Source: a virus (Duplodnaviria; Heunggongvirae; Uroviricota; Caudoviricetes). Taken from it: a stretch of DNA of 38,527 bases. This document shows positions 5,501-38,527 of this stretch, piece by piece; positions within the stretch are counted from its first letter, which is position 1, and each line of letters starts with the position of its first letter. Under the pieces are notes generated by a model. It saw only the letters and a list, made by a program, of their open reading frames with translations, did no database searches and was not told the origin of the DNA. The DNA is taken from the IMG/VR virus record IMGVR_UViG_2563366883_000008; one strand, written 5' to 3'. Both the position numbers and the translations under genes were made by a program.

Positions 5501-5505
5501 TGAAA

Positions 5506-5532
5506 GAAAAAGGGTGCGATAAGCACCCTTTA
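5506..5532. terminator. Bidirectional hairpin between convergent S'v and tail-fibre assembly genes
   Basis: aaagggtgc / gcacccttt stem with loop gataa, flanked by A-run and T-run. Confidence 0.5.
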
Positions 5533-5534
5533 AG

Positions 5535-6077: not shown

Positions 6078-6176
6078 TGATAAAAACAGGAATAATACTA
6101 TCGCTATATACGGACAGGGATTGTCTGAGATAACACATATATCAGGCGCTGCCTGCCGTACGCCATGAGCCGTTAA

Positions 6177-22604: not shown

Positions 22605-24186
22605 CCAGCATCCCCTTCATTTCCGCAGCAAACATGGCATCACTGAGCAGCGTCATCAGGCGGGAATCATCCATTTCACGGTAAAGGGCGGGCAGGTCTG
22701 CCAGTGCCTCCGCCAGCCCCCGCGTTCTGATGGCATCAATGACCGGCTCCAGTACCGGGTCGATGGCCTCCTGTAACCGGCGGGCAGGCACCGCATCCCC
22801 CATGTCGTCCAGTTCATCACGGGGGCTGCTTTTCGCTTCCGGCAGTCTGGCAGCCAGCGCTGTCTGCTCTGTCTTCTCCTGTTTTTCCGGTGGCATCTCT
22901 TTGTCTGTCTGAGCAGGTTCATTGCCACTCTGACGGACACGGAAGATGGCTTCACCGGGCGTGGGCTGCGGAATACCGGTCTGCTCCCTTATCCAGGGAT
23001 CAGAAATATCCATCCCCGTACTGAGCTGCATCACCGCACTGGTGATTTTGGTGATATCCCCCGGCTCTTTTGTCTGGAAACAGATACGCGGCAGGCGACG
23101 GATATCAATGGCGTGGGCGGTGTTCAGGGCATACAGCGGATACACCAGATCGCGGTTCAGCGTGGCGGCCAGCTGGCGTAAATCAGAATCCCTGATTTCC
23201 CGGCGCACCTCGTTATGCACTTCACCCAGCGAGCGCGCGCCTTTGTCTCCGGCTTCCGTGGTCAGCGTGCCGCCGAGTATTGCTTTGGAGATGGAACGCT
23301 CCCCCCACGAAATCATGGTTTCAAACGGATCGGCCTGACCGTTCGCTGCCGCCTGAAACTCCAGCGACATCCCGGCCGGGATGATCCCGCCTGTACGTCG
23401 CCCGATATCCATCACCGCCCGCATCAGGGCACTTTTCTGCTCCGGTGTTGCCCCGGACGGGTATTTCCCGACCTTCATCGGCAGGCCGTACACCTCCAGA
23501 AATTCCGCCAGATCGCGCACGGAATAGTTTTTGAAAATGAACGGCCAGATAAGCGTTCTGACAAGCCCCGTCGCACCACCGTAGCCGGTGCGTGAACGCG
23601 ACTGATGCACTATCCAGCCAAAGGGCTGAAACGCCACCCCGGCATGGCTGCCGTCACGCAGTCGCAGTTCGCTCAAATCATCCGGGTTAAGGCAGAAATG
23701 CCCGCTGTCACGCCAGCGGATGGCGCGGATGATGTGCATTTTACCGAGCATCCCGTGCTCAATTTCCATGCAGGAATAGCCCTTCAGGATGGCATCCGTG
23801 GCGTCAAACAGCATGGCATCAAACCAGTCTGCGGAATGCAGATATTCGTCGAGCATTTCCGCGTCCTTTTTCTCATTCGCGCTGGCGTTCGGTGGCGGCT
23901 CAATGCTCCATGGCACCCCCTGAATGGCAAGACGTCGCTTGCCCAGCTCCGCAAAAAGGTGGGTGTCCTTTTCTTCAATGTCAGCCGCCAGATCGGACTG
24001 GGCAATCAGATCGCCACGTTCAGCCCCGCGAAGGCACTGCGCCGCCCGGTTCGGGGTGATACCCGAGGCGGGATGCTCAACATAACGGCTGGCAATCTGC
24101 GGAATATCCAGCGCGGTACTTTGCATCTCCGGGTCAAAGGAGAAAGGTTTTCCGTCAAGATCAATTATGCGTCCCACTACCAGCAC
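22588..24186 (-). CDS. Portal protein (Mu gp29/H-like), 532 aa
   Basis: Size and position directly after the large terminase gene. Confidence 0.8.
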   Translation of the reverse strand: MLVVGRIIDLDGKPFSFDPEMQSTALDIPQIASRYVEHPASGITPNRAAQCLRGAERGDLIAQSDLAADIEEKDTHLFAELGKRRLAIQGVPWSIEPPPNASANEKKDAEMLDEYLHSADWFDAMLFDATDAILKGYSCMEIEHGMLGKMHIIRAIRWRDSGHFCLNPDDLSELRLRDGSHAGVAFQPFGWIVHQSRSRTGYGGATGLVRTLIWPFIFKNYSVRDLAEFLEVYGLPMKVGKYPSGATPEQKSALMRAVMDIGRRTGGIIPAGMSLEFQAAANGQADPFETMISWGERSISKAILGGTLTTEAGDKGARSLGEVHNEVRREIRDSDLRQLAATLNRDLVYPLYALNTAHAIDIRRLPRICFQTKEPGDITKITSAVMQLSTGMDISDPWIREQTGIPQPTPGEAIFRVRQSGNEPAQTDKEMPPEKQEKTEQTALAARLPEAKSSPRDELDDMGDAVPARRLQEAIDPVLEPVIDAIRTRGLAEALADLPALYREMDDSRLMTLLSDAMFAAEMKGMLDGSGD

Positions 24187-25841
24187 CCCCGATCAAATTC
24201 ATGATATGCCTCATCGTCATCACGATAACCGCCCTCCATTGCCCGCGACCGCTCCGGCAGCGCCTGACAGGCTGATTCATCCAGGATGAAACCCTCCATG
24301 TATGACGCCCGGTTTGCCATACAGAGTGCCACGGCAAAATCACCATGGCGGCGGGCGTTCGCAGCCGTTGCGTTCTGGTCCTTCGTGCGCCCCTTGTCGA
24401 TTTGCGGGATACCATTCACCACCTTCACATGGCGCAAATCATCAAGCGTGGTCTGATGGCGGGCGACGAGGATATTCTGATCTTCAAACTCGGCTTTCAG
24501 TTTTGGCATCCACTCGCCGTACCACTTCGGCGACAACATCACGCAGTCGATGATGTCCGGGCCAAAGGCCAGCAGCGCGGCTTCTGCCAGATAGCCGCCG
24601 TTACCGGTGGCGTCAAACGCTGCACCAACCAGGGCCGGAACGCGGGTCAGGATGTACATCATCACCTGCTCCTGCTGGGCATACGGCAAGTTGCGCAGCT
24701 CCACGCGAAACACCTCACGTTTTGCCAGGGATTCGGTGATTTCCAGCAGCACAAAGCAGGAGAGGTCACCGGTGCGGGCAAAGTCTTCCCCGAAGCTGAA
24801 GCGGGAACGGGGATTTAACGCCTCTAAAAGCGGTTTTAAATGTTCTTCACACCAGGTTAAAACTTCCGATTCACGCAGCCATGCGGCACGGCTGATGAAG
24901 TCGTCCGGGGCTTCAAACGTCAGAATCGGGATGTCGCGGATCATCGCCATTTCAATAAGTGCGTGAGGAATATAGGCACCGCCGGATTTTTTCGGGATAC
25001 AGCCGTATTCCTCGTCGGCATCCTCACGGGTCGGGGCGTTTTTGTAGAGATCATCACGCCACTTCTGCTCGCTTTCCGGTGACCATTCGCGGCCGGTGAC
25101 ATAACAGATACGACGGTACAGCCCGTCCGCAATGGCATCATCCAGGGTTATGCGGTGGACGCTGTAATCCTTGCGTCCCTCGCGGGCTTCCTGAATGTAC
25201 TGATTAAACAGATTATCGACGCCGTTATGCGTGGAGATAATACGCACGCGCGCGCCCCACATGGTAAGCGCCATTGCCGCCTTGAGAAGCTCATCCAGTG
25301 ACTCGTGGAACGCGGCTTCATCAATCACCACATCTCCCTGAAGGCCGCGCAGGTTTGACGGACGGGAAGACAGTGCCTGAATTTTGAATCCACTGTTCGG
25401 AAAGCGGATCATGTAGGTCAGAATTTCTTCTTTTTTATCCCGATCCCAGAAGGTCTGCTCATACACATCAGCATCTGCCAGCTGGTTAAAGGCACGGGAG
25501 AACAGGGCGCAGGCAGAAATATATTCCAGCGCCATCTCCTGCTTTGACCCCACATAAAACACATTGCGGCCACCGCGCCGCTTCGGTTTTGCAGCGGTAA
25601 TGACGTTACGCCCGGCTTCCGCCCAGGTAAGCCCGGTACGGCGGGATTTTTCCGCGATGCAGACCTCGCTTTCATCCTCAAACCAGCGGGCCTGATAATC
25701 CAGAAATACCGGCATATCACCGGGCAAATCAAGGCTGTCCGGCACATCCACGCCCAGCAGGGCTTTTTCACCGGCCAGATCAATTTTGCGGGTAGAGACG
25801 GTATTCGTCAGTAAGGGGGAGAGTTCTTCGGCGTTATTCAT
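24177..25841 (-). CDS. Terminase large subunit (Mu gp28/E-like), 554 aa
   Basis: VVIDEAAF Walker-B-like ATPase motif; size; followed by portal. Confidence 0.85.
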   Translation of the reverse strand: MNNAEELSPLLTNTVSTRKIDLAGEKALLGVDVPDSLDLPGDMPVFLDYQARWFEDESEVCIAEKSRRTGLTWAEAGRNVITAAKPKRRGGRNVFYVGSKQEMALEYISACALFSRAFNQLADADVYEQTFWDRDKKEEILTYMIRFPNSGFKIQALSSRPSNLRGLQGDVVIDEAAFHESLDELLKAAMALTMWGARVRIISTHNGVDNLFNQYIQEAREGRKDYSVHRITLDDAIADGLYRRICYVTGREWSPESEQKWRDDLYKNAPTREDADEEYGCIPKKSGGAYIPHALIEMAMIRDIPILTFEAPDDFISRAAWLRESEVLTWCEEHLKPLLEALNPRSRFSFGEDFARTGDLSCFVLLEITESLAKREVFRVELRNLPYAQQEQVMMYILTRVPALVGAAFDATGNGGYLAEAALLAFGPDIIDCVMLSPKWYGEWMPKLKAEFEDQNILVARHQTTLDDLRHVKVVNGIPQIDKGRTKDQNATAANARRHGDFAVALCMANRASYMEGFILDESACQALPERSRAMEGGYRDDDEAYHEFDRGCW

Positions 25842-26422
25842 CAGACTTTACCCAACAGAATCCCCTTAATACGGGACTCAAGCTGTTCACTCATCCCGTC
25901 CACGCCGCGCAGTTCGTCGGTGAGCGCGTTCGCCATCTCTTCAGCAAATGCGGCCCGGATTTCTTTTTCACGCTTAATGCTGCGCTCGGCGGCACTTTCC
26001 GCACGCTGTGCCGACAGGAGGATGTCCTTGATGAGGCGCATATCCACGTCGCTGTCGCTGTTCAGGGATTCGGTGGCGGCACGCAGACGGCGGTACATCA
26101 GGGCACGGGACATCTCCAGAATCAGCGCCGTAGTTTCACCGGTCGGCTTATCCCCCAGTTCAGCCATCATGGCTTTTGTCTGCTCGCGCAAATCACGCAG
26201 ATTGCGGGCAATCAGCTCATTACGGGAGGCTTCCCGGCTGATGGCCGCCGGTGAAAGCTGCTGCTCTTCCGGCAGGCCTGCCTCGCGGATCAGACGGTTG
26301 ATTTCCTCGCGGATCTGGACCTGCGTCAGACGTTTTTCACGCAGCATTTCCAGCAGCGGCTTACGGATGCTGTCGGGGAGCAAATCCACCTTGCGCACGC
26401 GGCCACGCGTCGGCTTGTCCAT
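25841..26422 (-). CDS. Terminase small subunit-like protein (Mu gp27/D-like), 193 aa
   Basis: Charged, coiled-coil-rich protein immediately upstream of the large terminase. Confidence 0.55.
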   Translation of the reverse strand: MDKPTRGRVRKVDLLPDSIRKPLLEMLREKRLTQVQIREEINRLIREAGLPEEQQLSPAAISREASRNELIARNLRDLREQTKAMMAELGDKPTGETTALILEMSRALMYRRLRAATESLNSDSDVDMRLIKDILLSAQRAESAAERSIKREKEIRAAFAEEMANALTDELRGVDGMSEQLESRIKGILLGKV

Positions 26423-26424
26423 CG

Positions 26425-26715
26425 TTACCCCCTTGCGCGTGGTTTCTTCACACCCGGAACACTGGCGCGGCCTTCCGCCACATCCTGCCCCCGGCCGGTC
26501 AGCTCTGCGATGAAATAACCGTTAATCAGAACGCGTTTGCGCACCAGTCCCTGTTCGGCAAGCCAGGCAATGTGGGTGTGAACGGTGTCGCGGGACACGT
26601 GGTGACCGTAATCATCCAGACAGTCCTGGAGCACGGATTCACCCAGTTCACCGTTGTAATCTGCCAGCGACCGCAGAATGACCAGACGCTGATCTTCAGT
26701 AATGAAATCACTCAT
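26425..26715 (-). CDS. Putative winged-helix DNA-binding protein (Mu gp26 position), 96 aa
   Basis: Position between lysis and packaging genes. Confidence 0.45.
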   Translation of the reverse strand: MSDFITEDQRLVILRSLADYNGELGESVLQDCLDDYGHHVSRDTVHTHIAWLAEQGLVRKRVLINGYFIAELTGRGQDVAEGRASVPGVKKPRARG

Positions 26716-27020
26716 TGCGTTTTTTTCCTTACAGCCTGCTCCAGCAGCAGTTCGTTCTGATAGGAGACAGAGCGGAGCGTGGCGTTCGTGGTTTTCAGTT
26801 CACCCCGCAGGGTCACGATTTCCACATTCAGACGGTTGACCTCGGCTTCTGTCGGCAGTGACGACAGGCGGGTTTCCACCTTCTCAACGCGGTCGGAGAG
26901 TTTTTCAAAGGCCTCGCGGGGGACAAACGTTTTGCGCATCAGCGCCATGAATATCCCGCCAGCGGTTGCCGTCGCCGAAAGGATCGGCACAACATAATCT
27001 TTAACGATGCTGACCCACAT
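26712..27020 (-). CDS. Small membrane protein with coiled-coil (Mu gp25 position), 102 aa
   Basis: N-terminal hydrophobic helix (VVPILSATATAGGIFMALM) followed by a predicted coiled-coil. Confidence 0.45.
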   Translation of the reverse strand: MWVSIVKDYVVPILSATATAGGIFMALMRKTFVPREAFEKLSDRVEKVETRLSSLPTEAEVNRLNVEIVTLRGELKTTNATLRSVSYQNELLLEQAVRKKTQ

Positions 27021-27228
27021 GACGGGCCTCCATGATGTTCTGGCAGTTCACACAACGGATGGCATCCGGCACAGCAACAAGACGTGCGGCGGGGATCTCT
27101 CCGCCACAGTCTGCGCAGACACGTCTGCCCGGAGCATCCATTGCCCGGCACTTACGTGTCAGCCGGTTACAAAGGGCGCGTTCTGATCCCCGCTCCATCA
27201 CAGCCTGAGCACGATCTGAATCATCCAT
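27001..27228 (-). CDS. TraR/DksA-family C4 zinc-finger protein, 75 aa
   Basis: CADCGGEIP...RCVNCQ four-cysteine motif near the C-terminus. Confidence 0.7.
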   Translation of the reverse strand: MDDSDRAQAVMERGSERALCNRLTRKCRAMDAPGRRVCADCGGEIPAARLVAVPDAIRCVNCQNIMEARHVGQHR

Positions 27229-27237
27229 AGCTTTTCC

Positions 27238-27609
27238 TTACTTCGTCTTTCCTGCCGGAACAGCAGGCGTTCCGGCCATATCAGTAAATTCATGTTGTCG
27301 CCGCGCCTCCAGACGACGAATACTGGCCTTGTCCACGTTGCAGTTCTTGATCACCGCCAGCAGTTGCAGGTTGTAAGTGACCGATGCCCCAAACGTGAAC
27401 GGCTCCGGCGCAGGAGGCACCAGGCAGTCAGCCAGCCATTCAGCGGGGATCGGCACCGGCTTCACAGGCACGTATTTCACAGACGGCCCGGCGCACCCGA
27501 TCAGCCACATCATCAGGAACAGGGGCAGAGGCCGCAGGCACTGCTGCCAGCGACCGGCGGACAACGCTCTGCTGCCCCTCGCTGTGCTGAATGTTCTGTT
27601 GTTTTTCAT
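27238..27609 (-). CDS. Putative o-spanin (outer-membrane lipoprotein), start at internal ATG
   Basis: Lipobox-like LIGC after a hydrophobic stretch; Pro-rich mature region; embedded in another frame of the i-spanin gene and extending past it. Confidence 0.5.
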   Translation of the reverse strand: MKNNRTFSTARGSRALSAGRWQQCLRPLPLFLMMWLIGCAGPSVKYVPVKPVPIPAEWLADCLVPPAPEPFTFGASVTYNLQLLAVIKNCNVDKASIRRLEARRQHEFTDMAGTPAVPAGKTK

Positions 27610-27940
27610 TCGTGGCCGCCTCACTGATTTGTGAAATGAGTTGCAGGGTGCGTTGCTGGTTTGCCAGCACCAGACGGGCTTCGTCCCGTTCGCGCACAAG
27701 CACATGATTATTGTCCTCAAGGCGCTGCGTCTTCTGGTGCATTCCCCATACCACGGCAGCCAGCACGCTCATCACCCCCAGCGCCGCCATACAGCCTCCG
27801 GCAATCAGGGCCGGTAAGGGATTATTCACCGCAGCCACAGCACACCCCGCAGCAGCACAACGGCACACAGCAGCGCAATCATGAGCGGTCGCCAGAAGCG
27901 GTTCAGACTTTCGGCAAATCGTAGCGACATAACCATTCAT
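27440..27940 (-). CDS. Putative i-spanin (start at ATG 27938-27940; the ORF-track start is a TTG)
   Basis: Hydrophobic N-terminal segment then coiled-coil-like region; overlaps the endolysin 3' end. Confidence 0.5.
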   Translation of the reverse strand: MNGYVATICRKSEPLLATAHDCAAVCRCAAAGCAVAAVNNPLPALIAGGCMAALGVMSVLAAVVWGMHQKTQRLEDNNHVLVRERDEARLVLANQQRTLQLISQISEAATNEKQQNIQHSEGQQSVVRRSLAAVPAASAPVPDDVADRVRRAVCEIRACEAGADPR

Positions 27941-28403
27941 CCGCCGAACGGCGGGCCTCAAGACCGGGGAGTTTCACCCCCTTCGAATAAATCCAGCGGA
28001 TGTACTGCTTACAGGACGCGGGCATCTGCCCGGCATTGATCAGGCGCAGAAGCGTGGAGTTGCGGAAGTTCGTTTCACCAGCCCAGAAGATCCACGAAGC
28101 CAGCGCCACCGTCTGACCACGGGTAAGCGGCACCTGAACACGCCGATCAATGGCCGCAAAGGCCCATTTCATGTCCTTTTCCAGTAGTTCCAGGCATTCT
28201 TCATCCGTCAGGGTCATACCCGGTTTCACATCCGGGCCGGTATGGCCGTAACAGATGGTTGGTGTACCGGTGGGATCGATATACGTGGAGTTTTCTTTCC
28301 CTTCCCAGTAACCGGTGTAATGCGTGGTAATGGTGAACGTCCCGGCACCGGCCAGAACAAGGGCAATCAGCTTTTTACGCAGTGGTGCGGGGAGTTTTGG
28401 CAT
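27903..28403 (-). CDS. Endolysin, T4-lysozyme-like (GH24), probably SAR-type, 166 aa
   Basis: N-terminal weakly hydrophobic Gly/Ala-rich segment (LIALVLAGAGTFTITT); YWEGKENSTYIDPTGTPTICYGHT E-D-T catalytic block. Confidence 0.85.
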   Translation of the reverse strand: MPKLPAPLRKKLIALVLAGAGTFTITTHYTGYWEGKENSTYIDPTGTPTICYGHTGPDVKPGMTLTDEECLELLEKDMKWAFAAIDRRVQVPLTRGQTVALASWIFWAGETNFRNSTLLRLINAGQMPASCKQYIRWIYSKGVKLPGLEARRSADEWLCRYDLPKV

Positions 28404-28474
28404 TGTTACGCTGTCTCATGATGTTCTCTGAGTCAGCGTAACGGTGAAGGAAAGGCGGCAGGCTTTGCGGAATA

Positions 28475-28897
28475 TCAGAAAAGTGGCGGTTGCGTTCTTG
28501 CCAGATGCAGACGGCGCTGTTCGCGTATGACGGTATAAATCTGGGTTTCTGACATCCTGTAATGGCGGCGCAGGGTTTCAATTTTTTCGCCCTGGCTCCA
28601 GCGGGAAAAAATCTCATTATTGCGCAGTTCGGTGAAAAGGGATTCACCGACCGGGAGATAATAACCACGCCCGCCCATGTACCCGGCCTGTGCGGCCGCA
28701 ACTTTACGGGCAAGCATTCCTGCCTGAGCAGGTTCAATCCCCTGACGGTGCAGTTCAGCACTGATCACATCAACCAGGTCCCGCAGCGTGCCGGGCCAGT
28801 TCTTTTTCAGCTCATCATCAGGAATGTCATCCAGACGGTCAATCAGCGCGTGCAGCTGTTCGCTGTCACCAAACATGCTCATCTGTGTTTCAGCCAT
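28475..28897 (-). CDS. Mor/C-family transcriptional activator of middle/late genes, 140 aa
   Basis: C-terminal HTH region and QPPLF terminus resemble Mu Mor as I recall it; directly upstream of the lysis genes. Cannot say whether it is Mor or C. Confidence 0.75.
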   Translation of the reverse strand: MAETQMSMFGDSEQLHALIDRLDDIPDDELKKNWPGTLRDLVDVISAELHRQGIEPAQAGMLARKVAAAQAGYMGGRGYYLPVGESLFTELRNNEIFSRWSQGEKIETLRRHYRMSETQIYTVIREQRRLHLARTQPPLF

Positions 28898-28939
28898 ACC
28901 CGCCTCCGGTCATCATTACACAGGGCAAGTTTAAAATAA

Positions 28940-28963
28940 AAATCCCGCGCTGTGGCGGGATTT
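28940..28963. terminator. Terminator hairpin, copy 1
   Basis: 9-bp stem aaatcccgc/gcgggattt, loop gctgtg; A-run before and T-run after, strong in minus-strand sense. Confidence 0.6.
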
Positions 28964-29237
28964 AGAGGCGCTGTAAATCATAACCCGAAATGAGCTGTGT
29001 ATTTATTGATCATTTTCCGGTGTAACTATATGATAAAGATCGTTTTTATTTTTAAAAATACAAACCCTGAAGGAGTTTTTCTTATCAAAAAGCTTGTGCA
29101 TATTGCGGGTTATTGTTGTTTCATCAACATGAAAACCAATTATCCCAACTCTTAAAGCACACCAGGCTTGCTCCAGTGCAAAAACAAATAATTTCAGTCT
29201 GCCTGACAGCGTTCCACCGGAATAAAGGAAGATATCC

Positions 29238-29660
29238 ATGAAACAACCTCCATCTTTGCTTTTATCGTGCCCACCAGAACTGGCCCATGAACTCAATGAT
29301 CTGGCGAAAGAGTATAAACTTACAAATCATAATATAGAAGCAGCAACACTTAGTGCTGCCGGAAGCGATATTGTATTGATCGTTCTGGCCGCAGCTTCAT
29401 GCGATGGGTTCTGGCAGGCATTAGCCAGTATGTTTCAGACGTGGTTACATCGTAAACCAACAAAACAAACACCCCCGGAAAAGAAAGTTATTCGTAGCGT
29501 CATTGTTCGTAGCTGGGAACACTATCAGGAGACAACTAAACAAACTGAATTTTATAACTTTGATGCTGATGAGCTGGCTAAATTGATAGCGTTATATGAA
29601 AAACCAGATGAAACAATTGGTTGCATAATCCCGTCAGAAACGGAAATTCAGGAAAAATAA
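29238..29660 (+). CDS. Hypothetical protein (140 aa), opposite-strand moron gene
   Basis: AGGAAG RBS; hydrophobic segment DIVLIVLAAASCDGFWQALASMF; AT-rich; stop immediately followed by hairpin copy 2. Confidence 0.6.
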   Translation: MKQPPSLLLSCPPELAHELNDLAKEYKLTNHNIEAATLSAAGSDIVLIVLAAASCDGFWQALASMFQTWLHRKPTKQTPPEKKVIRSVIVRSWEHYQETTKQTEFYNFDADELAKLIALYEKPDETIGCIIPSETEIQEK

Positions 29661-29683
29661 AATCCCGCACTGTGGCGGGATTT
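29660..29683. terminator. Bidirectional terminator hairpin, copy 2
   Basis: aaatcccgc-actgtg-gcgggattt, one loop mismatch versus copy 1; sits between the convergent stops of gemA (29687) and the moron gene (29660). Confidence 0.65.
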
Positions 29684-29686
29684 GGG

Positions 29687-30196
29687 TTAACAGGGGAATG
29701 ATTTTTCATACAGCCTGCAAACGCGCTCATAACTCATCACTGCACGCTCCGACATATCCAGGGCTGCCAGCATTTTGCGGCGGTGCCAGCGTTTGAGACG
29801 CTCCAGCACATCAGAGGCCAGCTCGGGGTGTTGCTCCAGCCACTGCCAGTTAGCCACACCTTCGCCGCCGTTCTGCGCGGCCGTCTGCGATTGCACCCAG
29901 CGGTTAAGGGCCGTTTCCGCACCATCAGAAATAAAGCCCTGCCGGTGCATCACTTTCCAGATGGCGCGAATTTTGGCGGTCACCGTACCCGGCTTTAAGG
30001 CCCGGTTAACCGGTTTCTGACGCACTTTAAAACCGCGTTTTTTGAAAACATCCAGTACGCGGGATAACTCATCCGGTGACATATCCCGGCAACTGGCTTT
30101 ACCGGTGGCTGCCAGCAGTGCGGATGTATAGGTTTCATCATCCAGAGCAAGCTCGCGTTTTGCCACATGAATGGCAGATATCAGTTTTCCTCTCAT
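29687..30196 (-). CDS. gemA: GemA-like regulatory protein (Mu gp16 family), 169 aa
   Basis: ISAIHVAKRELALDDETYTSALLAATGKAS... resembles the Mu gp16/GemA family; last gene of the early operon. Confidence 0.75.
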   Translation of the reverse strand: MRGKLISAIHVAKRELALDDETYTSALLAATGKASCRDMSPDELSRVLDVFKKRGFKVRQKPVNRALKPGTVTAKIRAIWKVMHRQGFISDGAETALNRWVQSQTAAQNGGEGVANWQWLEQHPELASDVLERLKRWHRRKMLAALDMSERAVMSYERVCRLYEKSFPC

Positions 30197-30504
30197 ACCG
30201 TATTTACCTTTTTACGGACATGGAAAGCCTTTTCTGGCTCATTCCACCGGATATGATGCGTTGGCGGAATAATCATTATGTGCCAGCCATCTCTGGTTGT
30301 TATTCGGCAGAAAAACTCACCGCTGTATAACACAATGGCCTGCTGAATAAGCGCATCCGCAGCCAGTTCAAGCAGATATCTTTTATCAAAAAGGCTGATA
30401 ATTTTCCGGCATAACCACCGGGTGATAACAAATGCGCCGAAAAACGATGTGATATATAAACACCAGAACAGCAGAGAAATATTGTCCGTTATTTGCTCAT
30501 CCAT
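30193..30504 (-). CDS. Hypothetical membrane protein, 103 aa
   Basis: N-terminal hydrophobic helix; AT-rich accessory region. Confidence 0.45.
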   Translation of the reverse strand: MDEQITDNISLLFWCLYITSFFGAFVITRWLCRKIISLFDKRYLLELAADALIQQAIVLYSGEFFCRITTRDGWHIMIIPPTHHIRWNEPEKAFHVRKKVNTV

Positions 30505-30829
30505 TGTGTATCTCCCGTAATTCCGGTAAAGCCGAAATATGGCACCAGTGCGTCACCTGTCCATCCTCATCTTCAAGGCAGGCTCCGGTTTCTTCATCAA
30601 CAAAAAAACCTTCATACCCGATATGGCCGATGCGCAGCTCCTGTCGGTGACCGTACTGAACAATCAGTACAACAGCCTCCATATCAGGCGGGAAAGCATC
30701 ATTCAGTGAATGCCAGGGATAACCGCGCAAATCCCCGAAATAAACCCCGGTCAGGGTTCCGCCACAGACCGGCATCCCGGCGGCACATACCAGAGGTTCG
30801 TCTGATTCAACAAATAAGGTCGTTATCAT
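30497..30829 (-). CDS. Hypothetical protein, 110 aa
   Basis: ORF in tight overlapping array; no recognised motif. Confidence 0.5.
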   Translation of the reverse strand: MITTLFVESDEPLVCAAGMPVCGGTLTGVYFGDLRGYPWHSLNDAFPPDMEAVVLIVQYGHRQELRIGHIGYEGFFVDEETGACLEDEDGQVTHWCHISALPELREIHNG

Positions 30830-31377
30830 GGCGTTAACTCCCGTAATACAGCGTCCCCGGCAGTCCGGCGATGGTGATAAATAAAATTCACCGTACTCTC
30901 GGATAATTCAAATTTCTCGCCTATTTCCCGGAAGGTAAGACGTCGTGGTGATTCAGCATCCCGTAATTCACGAATAAGATGAACATCATCGTCAGGTATA
31001 CGGGTGAAGGGCAGCAATTCTCCGTATTTTTTCATGCTTACGCCAATATATCGCGCCCGATTGTGGACAGAATCCCGGTCTCGCCCCAGATATTCTCCTA
31101 TTTGCTTACCGGTCATCGTTCTGGCATTTTTTCGGATAAATTTATCTTCATCATGTTTAAATCTTGGACGTTTGCATTTGAGCAACTCCGGGTAAGTACC
31201 GCGTAATAAAACAATCCGGTTATGTACACCCCAGAAACTTCTTTTTACCCTGACAGCAATATTCTTAACCGGGGTGGATGGATAAAGCGCAATCAGCAGC
31301 GCATCTTCTTCAGGTGTCCACGCACGGACATGAGCAGGTGCCTGACCTTTTCGCCCCATGGGTTGTAAAATCATCAT
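30826..31377 (-). CDS. Hypothetical protein with two HTH-like segments (SANT/Myb-like WTPEEDALL motif), 183 aa
   Basis: WTPEEDALLIALYP and two later HTH-like stretches (TGKQIGEYLGRDRDSV; FREIGEKFELSESTV). Confidence 0.5.
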   Translation of the reverse strand: MMILQPMGRKGQAPAHVRAWTPEEDALLIALYPSTPVKNIAVRVKRSFWGVHNRIVLLRGTYPELLKCKRPRFKHDEDKFIRKNARTMTGKQIGEYLGRDRDSVHNRARYIGVSMKKYGELLPFTRIPDDDVHLIRELRDAESPRRLTFREIGEKFELSESTVNFIYHHRRTAGDAVLRELTP

Positions 31378-31380
31378 ACA

Positions 31381-31896
31381 TCACCCCCTGACTCGCTTTT
31401 CAGCAGCATAAAACTCATCAGACAGAATTTCGGTCATTTTCTGATTTGCGGGTTTTACGCCGCACTCAAGGTAAATCACATCGTCAACGCAGAACCACTT
31501 CACAGGGCCAAACATGATTGCCGAGAAATCAATACCCAGCCAGAACAACAGGGCATCGGTTCTGGCATACGTGACGGGCGAATATTCACGCCACAGAATG
31601 TTCAGTTCATCAGAGGCAACACGCAGGGTTTTAGGGATACGTGATGTGCGCGGCGTACAGCTCCAGCCATTCGACGCAGTTGGTTTTCGCCATAAGTCGC
31701 GATGAAAAGGATATTTGTCATCCATAAAGCGCAGCCCCTTAAAACAAAAGCCACTGATACTGAATTCAAATACCGACCGGCACGCAACATTCAGCACGGC
31801 CTCAAGGCGTTTCGCCTCATCTTTTACCGTCTGGCAGTCCTGCTGGTATTTTTGCCACGCAGCCAGCGCGGCAGGGTTTGATGTTTTAAAGAACAT
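31381..31896 (-). CDS. Hypothetical protein, 171 aa
   Basis: ORF in the early accessory array; no recognised motif. Confidence 0.5.
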   Translation of the reverse strand: MFFKTSNPAALAAWQKYQQDCQTVKDEAKRLEAVLNVACRSVFEFSISGFCFKGLRFMDDKYPFHRDLWRKPTASNGWSCTPRTSRIPKTLRVASDELNILWREYSPVTYARTDALLFWLGIDFSAIMFGPVKWFCVDDVIYLECGVKPANQKMTEILSDEFYAAEKRVRG

Positions 31897-32429
31897 TACT
31901 CTACCTCCGCAGAAATCGCGGCAGGCGCAGCCGTCCGGTCAACAATCAGGTAACGCAGAACATGTTCGGTGATATTCCAGCCGCTTAAACCGCAGATAAT
32001 GACGCCCAGGCGAATGTCGATATACGCCATCACAAACTGGGGCACGCCTTCTTTCATGGCCTGCTCATCAACTTCAGCCACCACATAAACGGTTTCACAG
32101 GTCAGAACGCCCTGAGCAAATTCCCACGCCATCGACGGAATATCATGCCCCTCAATCCACGGCAGGGATTTTCTGAAGCTGCACCACTGAACATCATCAG
32201 CCGCACCTTCCTGGCTGCATTTGCGACGAACCGGCTGCACCGGGCGGGGACGCGGAATATCATAAAAACCGTTACGGTCCGTCAGCACACCGGCATCGAC
32301 CGCATCACGCAGAAAATAAACCATGGAGGATAGCGGCATATTCATTTTTTCTGCCAGAGAACGACTGGTCAGACGGCCAGAAAAACGCAGCCAGCTTTTA
32401 ACCCCTTCAAGCACTTTTGCATCAATCAT
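31896..32429 (-). CDS. Hypothetical protein with N-terminal winged-helix-like region, 177 aa
   Basis: SLAEKMNMPLSSMVYFLRDAVDAGVL HTH-like segment; 1-nt overlap with the downstream gene. Confidence 0.5.
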   Translation of the reverse strand: MIDAKVLEGVKSWLRFSGRLTSRSLAEKMNMPLSSMVYFLRDAVDAGVLTDRNGFYDIPRPRPVQPVRRKCSQEGAADDVQWCSFRKSLPWIEGHDIPSMAWEFAQGVLTCETVYVVAEVDEQAMKEGVPQFVMAYIDIRLGVIICGLSGWNITEHVLRYLIVDRTAAPAAISAEVE

Positions 32430-32432
32430 GAA

Positions 32433-33023
32433 TTATTCCTCCGTTATTGCGATGAATTCGGAATGCTTGATTGCCATCAATGACGGATGCAGCTTTTCAG
32501 GTGAAAAGGCATTATCTGATTCACCGACAGGAATACGAACCACAACAGCCCCTTTGTCGCCATAGAACCCGGCAGAAGAGCACGCCATAACTGTGCGGCC
32601 GTTGCTGACACCAAAAACCTCAAAATAGCAGTCCAGTTTATTAACCATCCAGGTACTGAATGACGGAAGCTGTTTTAACTTCTCGTTTAAGATATTCAGT
32701 GCTTTGTTCAGTTTTTTTCCCTCTCGGAATCTGCGGTCGGGCTTAACTGAAAATAAAACGCGGCCATCTTCATCAAATTTATCAGACAGCACCCGCTTAT
32801 TTCTTCCGACATCAACATCCTCATGAACCAGTATTGATGTGACAAAAATATGCCCATAACACCAGAAGTAAAGGTATCCTTTAGCTCTATGATTACTGAG
32901 AAAATCATCAATCAATTTCTTGCGCTCCCTGCCAGCGCAATCAAGCCATTCCCTGTGATAATGACGGGAATCGCGCTCATTCATTTTAAAATAACGATAT
33001 TTTATACTCATGATATGCCTCAT
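32433..33023 (-). CDS. Hypothetical protein, 196 aa
   Basis: AT-rich ORF immediately after gam; no recognised motif. Confidence 0.5.
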   Translation of the reverse strand: MRHIMSIKYRYFKMNERDSRHYHREWLDCAGRERKKLIDDFLSNHRAKGYLYFWCYGHIFVTSILVHEDVDVGRNKRVLSDKFDEDGRVLFSVKPDRRFREGKKLNKALNILNEKLKQLPSFSTWMVNKLDCYFEVFGVSNGRTVMACSSAGFYGDKGAVVVRIPVGESDNAFSPEKLHPSLMAIKHSEFIAITEE

Positions 33024-33095
33024 TCAGGCGCGAGCAGTCCCCTGACGCAAGCGCCATAATTAAAACGATGTGATATTTAAAGATTTAATGCGGTG

Positions 33096-33626
33096 TTATT
33101 TATTCAGTCCGGCGTCCTGTTCAAAAGGCTCGACATGAAAACTTTCAGCGCCTTTATTCACCTTAATACCAGCAATCCCTTTCACCGCATCCGGCTCTGC
33201 CAGGACAGCTTGCTTATTCACTTCCTCTTTCGTGCGGATGAAGCGCTCAAGCCCCATACGACGCAGCATTTCAATCACACCTTCCACATCACGACTGACG
33301 CTGCATGATGGATTTCCCAGCCGCCATGACACCGTTCCGGTGGTCAGATTGGCAGTTTTGGTTTCGCCGCCGTTCGTCAGCTCATTGCGGTTGGTTTTAC
33401 ACCAGTCATGAATCCCCTTAAAAAGCACTTTGATTTCTTTTTTAAGGTTTTCAATCTGTGGCGTATAACGGGCGGTGATTTCTGCCACTTCATCATTCAT
33501 TGCCGTTTCCAGGCGCAGCGCCTCTCGCTGAATATCGCCCAGGGTGCGGATATCGCGGCTGACCTCTTCACGGGTCTGCGGTGCCGCCTCTGCTGCGGCC
33601 TTTAATTTTGTAACGCGTTTTGCCAT
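33096..33626 (-). CDS. gam: Gam-like host-nuclease inhibitor / DNA-end-binding protein, 176 aa
   Basis: Strong resemblance to Mu Gam as I recall it (LETAMNDEVAEIT...TANLTTGTVSWR...FIRTKEE). Confidence 0.85.
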   Translation of the reverse strand: MAKRVTKLKAAAEAAPQTREEVSRDIRTLGDIQREALRLETAMNDEVAEITARYTPQIENLKKEIKVLFKGIHDWCKTNRNELTNGGETKTANLTTGTVSWRLGNPSCSVSRDVEGVIEMLRRMGLERFIRTKEEVNKQAVLAEPDAVKGIAGIKVNKGAESFHVEPFEQDAGLNK

Positions 33627-33637
33627 TTTGTTTTTCC

Positions 33638-33931
33638 TTATTGCAATGTGCCTGATGCTTTATGCACGCGGTGGCGTTTAATGACGGCATCCGCCCCAAA
33701 AGCCTGTACAGAGGCCTGAAATTCCGCTGAGAGAAACTGAATAATTGCAGGACTGTGATACTGGAGAATACTTGCATAAACATCACAGAGTGACGTCGGG
33801 CTGTTATCCGTATCACGTTCTGTTTTCACATCCACTCCAATCTTTTCATGCACTTCAACACTGTCATTGCCTGCCGGTTTTTCGTCATGCGAAACATGCT
33901 CAAATTCAAAAATAACGCGTACTTTGCTCAT
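33638..33931 (-). CDS. Hypothetical small protein, paralogue 2 (start at MSKVRVIFEF)
   Basis: N-terminus parallels the adjacent upstream ORF; tandem duplication. Confidence 0.45.
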   Translation of the reverse strand: MSKVRVIFEFEHVSHDEKPAGNDSVEVHEKIGVDVKTERDTDNSPTSLCDVYASILQYHSPAIIQFLSAEFQASVQAFGADAVIKRHRVHKASGTLQ

Positions 33932-33935
33932 GGAA

Positions 33936-34208
33936 TTACCCCTGTTGATTAAATTCATTACTGTCAATAACCCCGGTAGTCATGCCCCTGTCTTTCATGA
34001 ATGCACTGGCTTTCATTGCCACAAGCTCTGCGAAGTTTCTGCTTTCTGCCAGCATAACCACCCCAAAAATCATGGCAGGTCCATCACCTTTCTGCTTTAT
34101 CCCGGTTGAACGTATGTCCAGACTTACCCCCATGCGCACTGTTCCATCCGCGTTTTTATGGATAACGTGCTCCTTGTATTCGAAAATAATGCGTACGACT
34201 TTACTCAT
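33936..34208 (-). CDS. Hypothetical small protein, paralogue 1 (start at MSKVVRIIFEY)
   Basis: N-terminus parallels the adjacent downstream ORF. Confidence 0.45.
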   Translation of the reverse strand: MSKVVRIIFEYKEHVIHKNADGTVRMGVSLDIRSTGIKQKGDGPAMIFGVVMLAESRNFAELVAMKASAFMKDRGMTTGVIDSNEFNQQG

Positions 34209-34282
34209 CCTCTGGTCCTCGTTTTGTTCGGATAACTGACCCGGCGTCTGACCTGATGACAGAGCCGAACCATGAAGCAACT

Positions 34283-34513
34283 TCATACTTCCCAGTAAAC
34301 CGTGCAGCCGCTGATGCGGGTGGCTTTTACACGGCGGCGCAGGCCGTTGGTCTTAACGGTGATTTCAATTTCCTCTCCAGTCCCCTGAACCTTGCTTAGC
34401 GGCGGCGTGGTTTTCAGTGCAAAGCGTTGCGGGTAGCGTTTGCTGCGCTCCAGTACCGCACCGGCAAGTTCGGTCAGTCGACGGGCGTTATTCAGTGAAT
34501 CAAACAAATTCAT
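34283..34513 (-). CDS. Hypothetical protein, 76 aa
   Basis: ORF in the early array; overlapping start/stop with neighbours. Confidence 0.4.
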   Translation of the reverse strand: MNLFDSLNNARRLTELAGAVLERSKRYPQRFALKTTPPLSKVQGTGEEIEITVKTNGLRRRVKATRISGCTVYWEV

Positions 34514-34919
34514 AGGTGAACTCCGGTTGTATCAGTAATGGATTCATGCGCAATGCAGCCAGCTCTGACAGGAAGCCTCGATTAACTTTACCCATCCCCG
34601 GAATTTTTCGAGTTTCGCCACGCATGATTGCACGAAGAATGGAGTAACCGTGTCGCCACCCCTGGCGATAATCATCCATAATCAGAAAACCAAAGCGCAG
34701 GCTTTCCCATACATCCACATCAAAGCATTCATGATTAAAACGGCGTCTGATGGAATCAAGTTGCATGTCTGCATACCACTGATACAGGTCTATATACAGA
34801 AAACACACACCATCACCGTCCATCAATTCATAGATATAATCACAAACCTCCCCGTCATCGACGTTAAACTCTCGAAAGCTGTGGAGAACATTGATTTCCT
34901 GCTGTATCTGCATTTTCAT
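34500..34919 (-). CDS. Hypothetical protein, 139 aa
   Basis: AT-rich early-region ORF; no recognised motif. Confidence 0.5.
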   Translation of the reverse strand: MKMQIQQEINVLHSFREFNVDDGEVCDYIYELMDGDGVCFLYIDLYQWYADMQLDSIRRRFNHECFDVDVWESLRFGFLIMDDYRQGWRHGYSILRAIMRGETRKIPGMGKVNRGFLSELAALRMNPLLIQPEFTYEFV

Positions 34920-34931
34920 ATAACCTCTCGT

Positions 34932-35159
34932 TTAACTAACCCGTCTTGCACCGATAAAGCGACAAATATTGCTGTAAGCTTCTTTCGCACCTTCACGATC
35001 AAGTCCTGCCGATATTGCCATTCGGGTGCGATCATTAAATTCAAAGAGTAAATCGCCACATTCTTCACTGTCAGACATGGAGACTGCTTTGACGTTATCG
35101 AAATTCACCAGGTAAAAGCGTCCGTAAATATCAGGAATATTAAATACAGCCATAATCAC
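34932..35159 (-). CDS. Hypothetical small protein at the Mu kil position, 75 aa
   Basis: First gene after B, overlapping the B stop; position and size match Mu kil. Not sequence-verified. Confidence 0.4.
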   Translation of the reverse strand: MIMAVFNIPDIYGRFYLVNFDNVKAVSMSDSEECGDLLFEFNDRTRMAISAGLDREGAKEAYSNICRFIGARRVS

Positions 35160-36088
35160 ACCTGCGAGAGTAATTCAGGGTTGGTGTAAACCTCTTTAAA
35201 GGCCGCATTAATATGTTTTTCTGTCAGCGCCGCGCCTTCACCGCTGGCTGTGAGCCACGCCTGGTTAAGCGTATGTGTCAGAACACGTAATGCTCCCGGT
35301 TTTTCAGCAATAGCCTGCATGACAGCCAGCTCGGCCTCACCACTGATACCCCATGCCCTGGCAATAGCCAGCACATCCGCCTTTTTAGCCCTGCGAAGTT
35401 GTTTTGTACGGGCAAGACGGCTGAACAGGCGCGATAAATCATCAAAGGCGCGGCGTCCACCTTTAAACAGTCCGCGCGGGTTACCAATAAGCACCATCCC
35501 GATCCCCGTGGCGTCCTGAATTGCCCGGAGTTGCTCCAGACCGTCAATACCAAGATGATCCGCCTCATCCACAATCACCAGTCCGCGCGTTCCCATCAGG
35601 CGACGGCGGATGGCGCGGGATAATGCCCCTTTGTTCGCGCGGGTGTAATCAATCCCCAGCGCATCGGCCAGCTCCAGCAGACACTCCGTGACGCTGGAAT
35701 GCGCGGGAGACAGGGTGATCATCCAGGTGTTTGGTTGCTCCTGGCAGTAATTACGGGCGGTGGCCGTTTTACCCACACCCGGTACGCCCACAATAACGTT
35801 AATACAGCCCATCAGACGAACCGCCTGAAACAGTGCGCGCAGCTCCTGGACTGTCTGCGTTTCCACAAACTGCGGCGGTTCCGGCAGTGCGCTTTGTTTA
35901 TTCCAGTTCTCATACCAGGAGCGCAGGGAAGCAGCCACAGCAGCGTTATCGCCTTTATATTTTCCCTTACGGAAAGCCGATAATGTGCCGTCGGAAATTC
36001 CCGCCTCTCTGGCGATGGCATACTGCGTCAGTACGCCGCCATCAATAAGTTCATCAATGGTCTTGATTACATCGTTAATATCAGTCAT
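35156..36088 (-). CDS. B: Transposition ATPase B (MuB-like, AAA+), 310 aa
   Basis: N-terminal HTH, Walker A GVPGVGKT, Walker B VIVDEADHL; follows the transposase. Confidence 0.85.
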   Translation of the reverse strand: MTDINDVIKTIDELIDGGVLTQYAIAREAGISDGTLSAFRKGKYKGDNAAVAASLRSWYENWNKQSALPEPPQFVETQTVQELRALFQAVRLMGCINVIVGVPGVGKTATARNYCQEQPNTWMITLSPAHSSVTECLLELADALGIDYTRANKGALSRAIRRRLMGTRGLVIVDEADHLGIDGLEQLRAIQDATGIGMVLIGNPRGLFKGGRRAFDDLSRLFSRLARTKQLRRAKKADVLAIARAWGISGEAELAVMQAIAEKPGALRVLTHTLNQAWLTASGEGAALTEKHINAAFKEVYTNPELLSQV

Positions 36089-36126
36089 ATTATTAACCTC
36101 TCATTTGATACCTTGTTTAATCAAAT

Positions 36127-36159
36127 AACCTGAGTCGCCGCTCGGGTTATTTTTTTATT
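36127..36159. terminator. Hairpin plus T-run in the A-B intergenic region
   Basis: aacctgag/ctcgggtt stem (one G-U) with loop tcgccg, followed on the plus strand by atttttttatt; on the minus strand it lies between the A stop and the B RBS. Confidence 0.35.
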
Positions 36160-38250
36160 TCAGGCCAGCGGGTCATTTTCTTTTAATTTCGCTTCGAGCA
36201 ACTGCAATCCCCGCTGGAAATTACGCTCGTATTCTTCATCAGGCTCATCATCAACGGCAGGTTGCTGAACGGCCACCGTATTACCTACCGGGCGATAGAT
36301 GTTTTCCAGCCAGGGCTCTTGCGGCTTGTGCTCCAGCACGTTGACCACCTCATCCTCGGCATCACGGATTTTTTCCTCTGCACGTTTACGCATGCCTTTA
36401 AGGCGTTGCTGCTGTTTGTAGTATTCCGCGCTGACCGGGAAGGCTTCGCGTTTATTGCCGTCCCATACCGCCTCGCAAATCACGCTGCCATCCAGGCGAC
36501 GCACGGTAATTCGTTCGGCATCATGAATGTCATAGCTGATAAGCACCTTGCGGCCATGCTCGTCACGCAGCTCGGGCGCGTAGTAAATATTATTCAGCCA
36601 GCGTATTTCACAGCGTCTTACAGGGCGTTCCACCATCGGCCGGAACATATCCCGCAGCTCAACATCGGACAGCCATTCAATTTCAGTGTCCTCTTCCGCC
36701 AGGCGTTTTTTTCTGAACTCCGCCGGGCTGTAATGTTTCCCGTTCGGCTTCATGGGTAATTCATCGTGCGGCCGGTTGTTGTACCACTCAACACCGTCAC
36801 GAATGGCATCAATCAGTTCAGACCAGGACGGTAAATCACGCATCGCTGACTGCTGCCGGGCGTTCAGCCGTTTGCCCTGTTGCAGGGCAGTAAATGCCGA
36901 GCGTAAATCGCGGTTGGTTTTGCGTAACGTCTCGCGATCTGCACCTTTCCCGAAATAGGTGCGGTATTTACGGGCTATGCGCATCGGTAATGTGCGGTTA
37001 AGCCGTTCGATAATGCCTCGTCCCTGCGGATTACCGGCAATCCCGGTCGGGTGATTAATCCCCAGTCGCGGCAGTATCCCCACAACCTCCTTATCCAGGA
37101 TGTCGGCGGTTTCCCCGGAGCCGTTATCCGAGTAATACAGAAACGGTTTGCCGTGATGGCGAATGCCGTGCTGTATGGCTCCGGCTACGGCGAAAACATT
37201 TTCAGCCAGGTCAAGGCTCCAGCCCACCACAAAGCGCGTGCCACCGTCGATAACAAAGGTCACTTCCGGTGCAAATGGCCGACCGTGAACCGGGTGTGCG
37301 CATTTCAGCTTCATGCCGTGACCGTCACCAATCCAGACATAATTCACCGGCATTTTTGACCAGTCGCGGCGCGTGAATCCCTCAAGCTGGCGGTATTCAC
37401 TGCCGGTCACCCGGCCTTTTTGTTTCACCACTTCCGGCAGTTTCTTCATTGCGCGGCGAATGGTGTCATAAGACGGCATGATATCGAGCATATAAGGCTC
37501 ATCAGCGTGCCGGTGCTGCCATTCAGCGACAAAATCCTCGTAAGCCTCGGTCATTGGTCGACCGTTTGACTGGCGATACTGCGCCAGAAACTCGGGCAGC
37601 CAGTTAATATCTTCGGCTTTTATTTCCTGGCGCTTACCCGGTGCCAGCAAAAGCAGGCGTTCAGCGGCGTTCTGCGCCTTGTTAAAGGCTGCAATCCAGC
37701 GTTTCAGCGTGATTTCACTCAACGCGCGGCTGTTTCCCTTTTTGGCGTTCGCCGTCTCAACCATTGCCACAATGCGCTCGTCCAGTTGCGAACGTGCCAG
37801 GTTGTCAACGATAAACCGGATAGCCTTCGCGCAGCTGAAACCGGGTTGTTGCGCGACTTTCATCACTTCGCTGACGATCGCGATTCGTGCATCAGCCACC
37901 TGGCGCTGGTTTTCAGTCAGGGCATTAAGGCGTTCAACCATCAGTTGTGGTGATCCGCGATATGCCTCCACCGCATCAACCACGGCAGGCGAGCGTCTGG
38001 CCTTTGTCACCACCGGAGCCGGTGATTCATCGGCTTTTTGCGTCATCAGTTGAAGGGCATAACGTTCACGCAATACTTGTTGCGCGCCAGAAGGCAAACA
38101 ATCGATATTAAATTCGATTGCTTTTGTCCCCTTACGTTTGCGTAACATGGCTGCATTTCCCGCAGCTGCTTTTGTGAGTCGATGGCGAATGTTATGTTCC
38201 ATCATTGGTAAATCAGGAAGACCAACACATTCTTTTGCTGTTACCCACAT
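36160..38250 (-). CDS. A: DDE transposase A (MuA-like), 696 aa
   Basis: Size, position between ner and B, central DDE-type core (VWIGDGHGMKL region). Confidence 0.9.
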   Translation of the reverse strand: MWVTAKECVGLPDLPMMEHNIRHRLTKAAAGNAAMLRKRKGTKAIEFNIDCLPSGAQQVLRERYALQLMTQKADESPAPVVTKARRSPAVVDAVEAYRGSPQLMVERLNALTENQRQVADARIAIVSEVMKVAQQPGFSCAKAIRFIVDNLARSQLDERIVAMVETANAKKGNSRALSEITLKRWIAAFNKAQNAAERLLLLAPGKRQEIKAEDINWLPEFLAQYRQSNGRPMTEAYEDFVAEWQHRHADEPYMLDIMPSYDTIRRAMKKLPEVVKQKGRVTGSEYRQLEGFTRRDWSKMPVNYVWIGDGHGMKLKCAHPVHGRPFAPEVTFVIDGGTRFVVGWSLDLAENVFAVAGAIQHGIRHHGKPFLYYSDNGSGETADILDKEVVGILPRLGINHPTGIAGNPQGRGIIERLNRTLPMRIARKYRTYFGKGADRETLRKTNRDLRSAFTALQQGKRLNARQQSAMRDLPSWSELIDAIRDGVEWYNNRPHDELPMKPNGKHYSPAEFRKKRLAEEDTEIEWLSDVELRDMFRPMVERPVRRCEIRWLNNIYYAPELRDEHGRKVLISYDIHDAERITVRRLDGSVICEAVWDGNKREAFPVSAEYYKQQQRLKGMRKRAEEKIRDAEDEVVNVLEHKPQEPWLENIYRPVGNTVAVQQPAVDDEPDEEYERNFQRGLQLLEAKLKENDPLA

Positions 38251-38260
38251 ACATCCCCCA

Positions 38261-38527
38261 TCAAGCCACTTCTCTGGCGTCCACCTGGTATCTGCTGGGC
38301 CAGATTACAGCAGGTTCAACCCCTATTTTTTCGGCGATGGCGGCTTCGTATTTACGGCACTGGCGGTAAAACACATTGCGCATTGATCCGCTTTTTAATC
38401 CTAACTCCCTTTCCAGTTCAGGGAGGTCTGTGCCTTTGTTTTCAAGGGCTGCATATACCGCTTTAGCAGACCAGTCACACCCCTCTCGAACAAACAAATT
38501 ATTCGATGCTTGTCTGGATACCCTCAT
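38261..38527 (-). CDS. ner: Ner-like DNA-binding regulator, 88 aa; start codon at the window edge
   Basis: PAVIWPSRYQ C-terminal motif typical of the Ner/Nlp family; immediately upstream of the transposase. Confidence 0.8.
   Translation of the reverse strand: MRVSRQASNNLFVREGCDWSAKAVYAALENKGTDLPELERELGLKSGSMRNVFYRQCRKYEAAIAEKIGVEPAVIWPSRYQVDAREVA

Follow-up and report, generated by a model that had tools for sequence, protein, structure and literature searches.

Three predicted helix–turn–helix modules in the product of a D5-like gene from the early region of a Mu-like prophage

The window analysed here is the whole stretch of IMG/VR record IMGVR_UViG_2563366883_000008, 38,527 nucleotides of a Mu-like prophage (Caudoviricetes) read along the minus strand. 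Its early region contains an open reading frame (ORF) of 183 codons, in which a first-pass annotation had noticed a SANT/Myb-like motif and two further segments resembling a helix–turn–helix (HTH). The gene and the parts of its product are listed below. Alignment A1, named there, consists of 21 full-length homologues and was also the input for AlphaFold2 (AF2).

30826–31377, minus strand: D5-like gene for an early protein with three HTH modules
31321–31377, minus strand: N-terminal arm, residues 1–19 (MMILQPMGRKGQAPAHVRA), defined on A1; predicted local distance difference test (pLDDT) 42–61, entropy 0.85 bits
31198–31320, minus strand: HTH module D1, residues 20–60, Myb/SANT-like or like the DNA-binding domain of GcrA; helices 22–31, 37–43 and 48–59; contains WTPEEDALLIALYP
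31039–31161, minus strand: HTH module D2, residues 73–113, second Myb-like repeat (FKHDEDKFIRKN...); helices 75–84, 90–97 and 101–110; from AF2, hhalign against D1 and alignments with c-Myb R3 and Mu gp9
30865–30999, minus strand: HTH module D3, residues 127–171; helices 129–140, 149–156 and 160–169; from AF2, sub-threshold Pfam matches and entropy
30829–30864, minus strand: C-terminal helix, residues 172–183 (TAGDAVLRELTP), defined on A1; helix 173–181 in the AF2 model

The ORF opens with ATG and ends with a TAA stop at 30826–30828. RefSeq annotates a coding sequence with identical boundaries in a 98.6%-identical Escherichia coli prophage, where the product is named 'AsnC family protein', and the locus is present in 232 of 5426 complete E. 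coli genomes (about 4%). A G-rich Shine-Dalgarno sequence, AGGGGGTGA, lies 4–12 nt before the start codon and overlaps the stop codon of the preceding gene, and the stop codon of the D5-like gene is in turn overlapped by the ATG of the next gene. These overlaps embed the gene in the early operon. In a promoter scan, sigma-70-like matches were fewer in the region than in shuffled sequence, with no sign of a promoter of its own. The ratio of non-synonymous to synonymous substitution rates (dN/dS) between its alleles is 0.21–0.32, and because of this purifying selection we regard it as a genuine coding gene. A chance ORF or a pseudogene was ruled out by the same selection together with conserved synteny.

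The product is basic (isoelectric point 10.1), with net charges of +3 in D1, +4 in D2 and −2 in D3. It has a single cysteine, and just a 12-residue helix follows D3. The AF2 model (pLDDT 82, predicted template modelling score 0.47) is all helical, with no strands; it consists of three independent three-helix bundles (residues 22–59, 75–110 and 129–169), a C-terminal helix (173–181) and an N-terminal arm that is disordered. When the sub-alignments are compared by hhalign, D1 and D2 emerge as a significant internal repeat (98.4%, E 5e-15) and, judged by their sequences, represent a genuine duplication. D3 is marginally related to D2 (hhalign 68.9%) and not significantly to D1. Bundles two and three correspond to the two additional HTH-like segments of the first-pass annotation, which had proposed structure prediction and a DALI/Foldseek search as checks; the predicted structure does consist of HTH bundles and is not a fold lacking them. 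In the BFVD database, Foldseek found 14 phage multi-HTH proteins at E ≤1e-3; the D5 protein of a Vibrio phage scored E 5.5e-3.

The segments flanking the modules are conserved as well. The N-terminal arm is basic (net +3), predicted to be disordered and strongly conserved in A1, with G11 and H16 invariant and P6, G8, P14, A15 and R18 at least 90% conserved; it may be a DNA-contacting arm or a protein-contact motif. The linker between D2 and D3 keeps K117, G119, T125 and R126. In the C-terminal helix, T172 is invariant in A1, and A173, R179, E180 and P183 are at least 90% conserved.

The Myb-like motif, WTPEEDALLIALYP, occupies residues 20–33 (nt 31279–31320). The A1 profile matches the R2R3 region of c-Myb and B-Myb over residues 18–106 (E 4.4e-6; aligned with c-Myb 60–150), and several homologues have precomputed Pfam Myb matches (PF00249/PF13921). 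On these profile comparisons the resemblance, already seen in the first-pass annotation, is more than chance. The protein alone stays under the Pfam Myb gathering thresholds (14.7 versus 24.4 bits and 14.8 versus 22.9 bits, 13 residues aligned at 19–32). Indeed, every single-sequence Pfam match is below threshold, with generic HTH families at 131–167 and Myb at 19–32. Two Myb/SANT features are present in the protein: the fold, which in that family is a three-helix bundle of about 50 residues with its HTH in helices 2 and 3, and the tandem R2R3-like spacing. In contrast to the eukaryotic R2R3 proteins (c-Myb, B-Myb, WER), which have three regularly spaced Trp or aromatic residues, only the first is retained (W20, invariant); the W2 and W3 positions are V/T/I and L58 in this family, and D2 begins with F, W or L. 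The protein also differs from them in having a third, non-Myb HTH and in coming from a bacterial virus.

Three bacterial families were considered besides Myb. The DNA-binding domain of Caulobacter GcrA (PDB 5yiu) is one module compared with three here, and GcrA continues into a C-terminal domain that interacts with sigma-70 and has a CCCH zinc motif (defined in PMC5887438). Membership of the GcrA family (PF07750) was rejected: this zinc domain is absent, and there is no GcrA Pfam match at E ≤10. Nothing points to the reading of methylated DNA by the protein. D3 resembles sigma-70 region 4 and AsnC-type HTHs (sub-threshold Pfam matches to HTH_11, HTH_AsnC-type and Sigma70_r4). The protein was nevertheless rejected as a member of the sigma-70 family, as region 2, the part for −10 recognition and core binding, is lacking, the region-4 matches at 145–167 are sub-threshold and TIGR02937 scores 13.9 versus 42.9 bits. 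The RefSeq label on close homologues would make the protein a ligand-responsive transcription factor of the AsnC/Lrp family. It is backed by a sub-threshold HTH_AsnC-type match at residues 131–163 (E 5.5e-4; 20.1 bits, where the cutoff is 27). However, only this generic HTH segment matches; AsnC_trans_reg is unmatched even at E ≤10, and the helical, strandless model has no C-terminal alpha-beta RAM domain for effector binding and oligomerization. As this defining domain is absent from both the Pfam results and the AF2 model, the AsnC/Lrp identity is refuted, we give it practically no credence, and the RefSeq name is wrong.

The closest assignment is to PHROG 323 (phrog_323, 'transcriptional regulator, D5-like'), with E 1.7e-57 and 196 bits, residues 2–182 matching positions 80–256 of the 319-position profile. 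D5 of phage T5 (T5.118, 255 residues) belongs to the same PHROG (E 1.2e-71). Aligned directly by hhalign (96.6%, E 5.7e-10), residues 18–169 of A1 correspond to D5 72–232, with the three modules in the same order. Both proteins open module 1 with WTPE(E/Q), share (L/M)T..EI.EK in module 3, and are encoded by early genes near replication genes. They differ in that the N-terminal ~70 residues of D5 (profile positions 1–79; D5 1–71) have no counterpart in the prophage protein, and T5, unlike the Mu-like prophage, is virulent and encodes a replisome of its own. In the T5 record, D5 is entered as a DNA-binding protein needed in replication and late transcription and also involved in shutoff. It is the one relative that has been studied experimentally; McCorquodale et al. 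(1979) is the primary D5 reference, as cited in PMC12630848.

Phage Mu itself has a member of this family. Mu gp9 (E8, Mup09, 99 residues, encoded just upstream of gam) is labelled D5-like in the Mu reference genome and matches phrog_323 with E 5e-29. It aligns with residues 66–168 of the prophage protein, that is D2 and D3 (30% identity, E 5e-10), and is a two-module homologue without the Myb-like D1 and without the N-terminal arm. Both genes lie in the early region of a transposable phage, gp9 in the semi-essential early region. They differ in position: gp9 precedes gam, whereas the prophage gene follows a gp12 homologue, where Mu has gp13–gp15. No gp9 homologue was found in the window at the gp9 position of Mu. 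The first-pass annotation had suggested that the protein falls outside the canonical Mu repertoire, and this does not hold, gp9 being in the same PHROG; the prophage differs from Mu in having an additional Myb-like module at the N terminus and in the place of the gene, not in the fold, of which gp9 has two modules. Based on these alignments, the protein is related to T5 D5 as a shorter form truncated at the N terminus, and to Mu gp9 as a longer form with three modules.

As a control of specificity, a hidden Markov model (HMM) of A1 was run over every ORF in 30 kb of T5, in the 11.5 kb Mu early region and in the window. It retrieved only the prophage protein itself, Mu gp9 (8e-13) and T5 D5 (8e-9), and missed the other HTH- or Myb-annotated proteins of the 30-kb T5 region. 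One T5 protein, T5.108 ('replication origin binding'; 4546–7332 of the T5 region), is not matched by the A1 profile; its record lists a SANT/Myb domain (IPR001005) and a DEAD-like helicase. The same architecture of helicase plus Myb repeat occurs in P0029, a protein with an array of about nine HTH copies fused to ResIII/Helicase_C.

Among 5.8 billion proteins searched, 25 were homologues, down to 40% identity. They are named in their sources as AsnC, SANT/Myb or winged-HTH proteins, and the hits with named hosts all come from E. coli, Salmonella or Citrobacter. A scan of GTDB species-representative genomes added two remote, partial relatives only. Judged from this distribution, the full-length family is a sporadic prophage gene. 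Profile searching opens up a much wider field, with 14,257 representatives at E ≤1e-3, many of them long proteins of 3–10 tandem copies of a WT.EED...EIA..LGRS..SV..RA..LGL unit of ~48 residues. Some arrays are fused to helicase or HNH domains; P0029, as an example, carries about nine copies with ResIII/Helicase_C. Six of the array proteins consist almost wholly of such units (P0028, P0029, P0034, P0037, P0070 and P0088). The prophage protein differs from these long arrays in having just two such units, together with a third HTH of a different kind and an arm that is conserved. The array proteins have no curated Pfam family and are covered through overlapping Myb, GcrA and sigma-region-4 models. 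D1 and D2 are accordingly part of a very large prokaryotic and phage superfamily of HTH repeats that overlaps these three Pfam models.

The gene order in the window is A, B, gam, DUF5420 protein, Gp11-like, gp12-like (phrog_2314), the D5-like gene, two small ORFs, gemA, mor and lysozyme. A multi-HTH protein in the phage early operon had been proposed in the first-pass annotation, and the three modules of the model and the place of the gene between gp12-like and gemA bear this out. The neighbouring genes referred to are:

36160–38250, minus strand: transposase A
35156–36088, minus strand: B
33096–33626, minus strand: gam
32433–33023, minus strand: DUF5420 protein
30497–30829 and 30193–30504, minus strand: small ORFs after the D5-like gene
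29687–30196, minus strand: gemA
28475–28897, minus strand: mor

Relatives of the D5-like gene were found in 65 IMG/VR loci. In Mu-like loci the gene lies without exception between gp12-like and gemA. A P2-like backbone (int, C, cox, replication gene A) occurs in about 20 loci and in Citrobacter phage Shae_phiSM; there a full-length homologue in the early operon invariably precedes gene A, which it abuts in eight loci. In a Vibrio P2-like prophage, only 7 nt separate gene A from the end of a D5-like gene of 150 residues, and in T5 D5 is located between the ligase gene and the genes for a DnaB-like helicase, primase and polymerase. No partner gene is conserved with the D5-like gene across the Mu-like and P2-like backbones of the loci compared. 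What recurs is early expression and closeness to replication genes. PADLOC gave no match for the protein or for seven neighbouring proteins.

Several features of the neighbourhood were recorded in their own right. The slots around the block of gp11, gp12 and the D5-like gene are mosaic (32433–33023; 30193–30829): the DUF5420 protein is about 90–98% identical in some related loci, 22–24% identical in others or absent, and the two small ORFs are present or replaced independently of one another. A 139-residue ORF at 34500–34919 (minus strand), a few hundred bases downstream of B and near the place of Mu kil and gp6–gp8, has no PHROG or PADLOC match. Between gemA and mor lies a 720-bp segment of low GC content (28933–29683; about 40–43% compared with 50–56% in the flanks). 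It is flanked by 31-nt direct repeats (28933–28963 and 29653–29683), each an intrinsic-terminator-like hairpin on the minus strand, and contains an ORF of 140 residues on the opposite strand (29238–29660, plus) without a PHROG, Pfam or PADLOC match. Most related loci lack the segment, and it thus appears to be a moron that entered at the terminator of the early operon. Between gemA and lysozyme (27903–28897) there is one Mor/C-family gene (28475–28897), where Mu has mor, three small ORFs, C and lys; in the prophage, the middle/late cascade may be driven by one activator alone or involve another factor.

Two major alleles of the D5-like gene exist in Mu-like loci, with at least 89% (type A) or about 70% (type B) protein identity to the window protein. 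Between them, synonymous divergence (dS) of the gene is 0.54–0.82, compared with 0.09–0.43 in the other genes compared, and the length of 183 codons is kept exactly and without gaps. These values mark an older allele, exchanged by recombination and held under purifying selection. For a co-variation test, 39 Mu-like loci of type A or B were anchored on positions 24000–38527 of the window, that is on the early and lysis parts. All but one of the 76 allele-discriminating positions are inside the gene (within 30800–31299), which makes it a clean cassette. A co-divergence of mor with the alleles, apparent in three pairwise comparisons, failed across all loci and was discarded.

The exchange of the gene as a cassette would also suit a gene that is the decayed DNA-binding part left over from a homing endonuclease or another selfish element, without function for the phage. 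Weak PHROG matches to HNH endonucleases with similar HTH arrays (phrog_1891, 6156), and endonucleases with such arrays among the BFVD matches, point in the same direction. We consider this origin very improbable as an account of the present gene: there is no nuclease domain, the gapless 183 codons are maintained at the low dN/dS given above, the operon position is conserved across the 65 loci, and the gene is in tight coupling with the stop codon before it and the start codon after it.

The variability within the protein is concentrated in one element. The third helix is the most variable part of each module (1.79, 1.92 and 2.04 bits, compared with 0.27–1.46 bits for helices 1 and 2); in D3, helices 1 and 2 are nearly invariant (0.50 and 0.27 bits) and helix 3 is hypervariable. 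Within the third helices, the exposed positions i, i+1, i+4 and i+5 are hypervariable, and the core positions and one Arg in each (R54, R107, R170) are conserved. Non-synonymous divergence (dN) in helix 3 is 0.48, four times that elsewhere (0.12), with a dN/dS of 0.4–0.9. This pattern fits a changing DNA specificity or a weak sequence specificity as in a general duplex binder of the D5 type, and positive selection is not proved by it.

Hypervariable recognition helices might indicate a sequence-specific regulator directed at the host or a competitor, the modules reading an extended and asymmetric site in the chromosome of the host or in another mobile element and the alleles recognizing different sites. 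The conservation of structural positions and one Arg per helix beside the exposed variable ones, the raised dN of helix 3 and the clean cassette swap, with no phage site co-varying within about 14 kb, agree with such a function; the occurrence of the same gene in unrelated Mu-like and P2-like backbones argues against a backbone-specific phage target. Yet dN/dS in helix 3 does not exceed 0.9, the data are accounted for just as well by relaxed constraint, and the co-variation comparison took in the early and lysis parts of the prophage only. No target site was found, and PADLOC gave no match to a defence or anti-defence family. We regard a host- or competitor-directed regulator as unlikely.

More doubtful still is a joint proposal, that the protein is a swappable cassette of DNA specificity or else a hitherto unrecognized Mu-type accessory factor coupling transpositional replication to the early-to-middle transcription switch, as is said of D5 in T5. 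In its cassette half, the alleles would differ on DNA-facing residues of the recognition helices, swap freely between Mu-like and P2-like elements and bind extended sites outside their own early region. If this were true, the gene would represent a programmable factor for competition between elements or for reprogramming of the host.

Our preferred explanation is that the protein binds duplex DNA early in the lytic cycle through a beads-on-a-string array of three HTH modules. D1 and D2 would act as a duplicated pair similar to Myb R2R3, and we infer that their third helices lie in adjacent major grooves; D3 would add a HTH resembling sigma region 4, and the basic N-terminal arm and the linker between D2 and D3 probably contribute contacts to the backbone or the minor groove. 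Transcribed with the early operon (ner-A-B-gam...gemA) after induction, the protein would act on phage DNA at the early-to-late transition, supporting replication and/or the shutoff of early and the onset of later transcription, as a non-essential accessory factor. We prefer this function because of the homology to D5, the early expression and the recurrent proximity to replication genes. Fold, homology, operon position, purifying selection and cassette behaviour are established by the analysis. That the protein binds DNA is highly probable by analogy with its relatives, T5 D5 and PHROG 323 being a DNA-binding family and homology to a non-DNA-binding family not having been seen; a D5-like role in replication or transcription is tentative, at somewhat less than even odds. 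For the explanation as a whole we arrive at a probability of roughly 0.55, a compromise between the two.

Several points weigh against this explanation. There is no candidate binding site, and nothing in window positions 24000–38527 co-varies with the allele types among the 39 loci. The inter-domain geometry of the AF2 model is not reliable at a template modelling score of 0.47. T5 D5 is a distant relative (~26% identity in the aligned columns) whose N-terminal ~70 residues are missing here, so function may not transfer. Part of the similarity to D5 is at superfamily level, since generic tandem-HTH proteins with ~48-residue units score far above D5 against D1–D2. A literature search found nothing on Myb proteins of Mu-like prophages or on Mu gp9. 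Finally, D3 is acidic, and the best-conserved surfaces are those of helices 1 and 2, not the recognition helix, a pattern that fits protein contact as well as DNA binding. The protein could therefore be mainly protein-binding, its near-invariant D3 and/or its SANT-like D1 docking to a replication protein or to RNA polymerase, as would, for instance, a mimic or appropriator of sigma region 4, with DNA contact secondary. However, the sigma-region-4 matches are all under the Pfam thresholds, no partner gene travels with the gene across Mu-like and P2-like contexts, and the isoelectric point and the D5, Myb and GcrA relatives point to DNA binding. A mainly protein-binding function seems improbable to us.

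Through this analysis, an unnamed and mis-annotated gene acquires an identity in structure and evolution, and its 'AsnC family' label is corrected. D5-like proteins with tandem HTHs are a known kind of phage protein; less routine are a cassette with hypervariable recognition helices, a possible source of differences in DNA specificity between alleles, and the connection of T5 D5, Mu gp9/E8 and an accessory gene of P2-like early operons, which is absent from the literature searched. If the D5-like role is true, Mu gp9 and the prophage protein would be candidates for the poorly mapped accessory functions of the semi-essential region of Mu.
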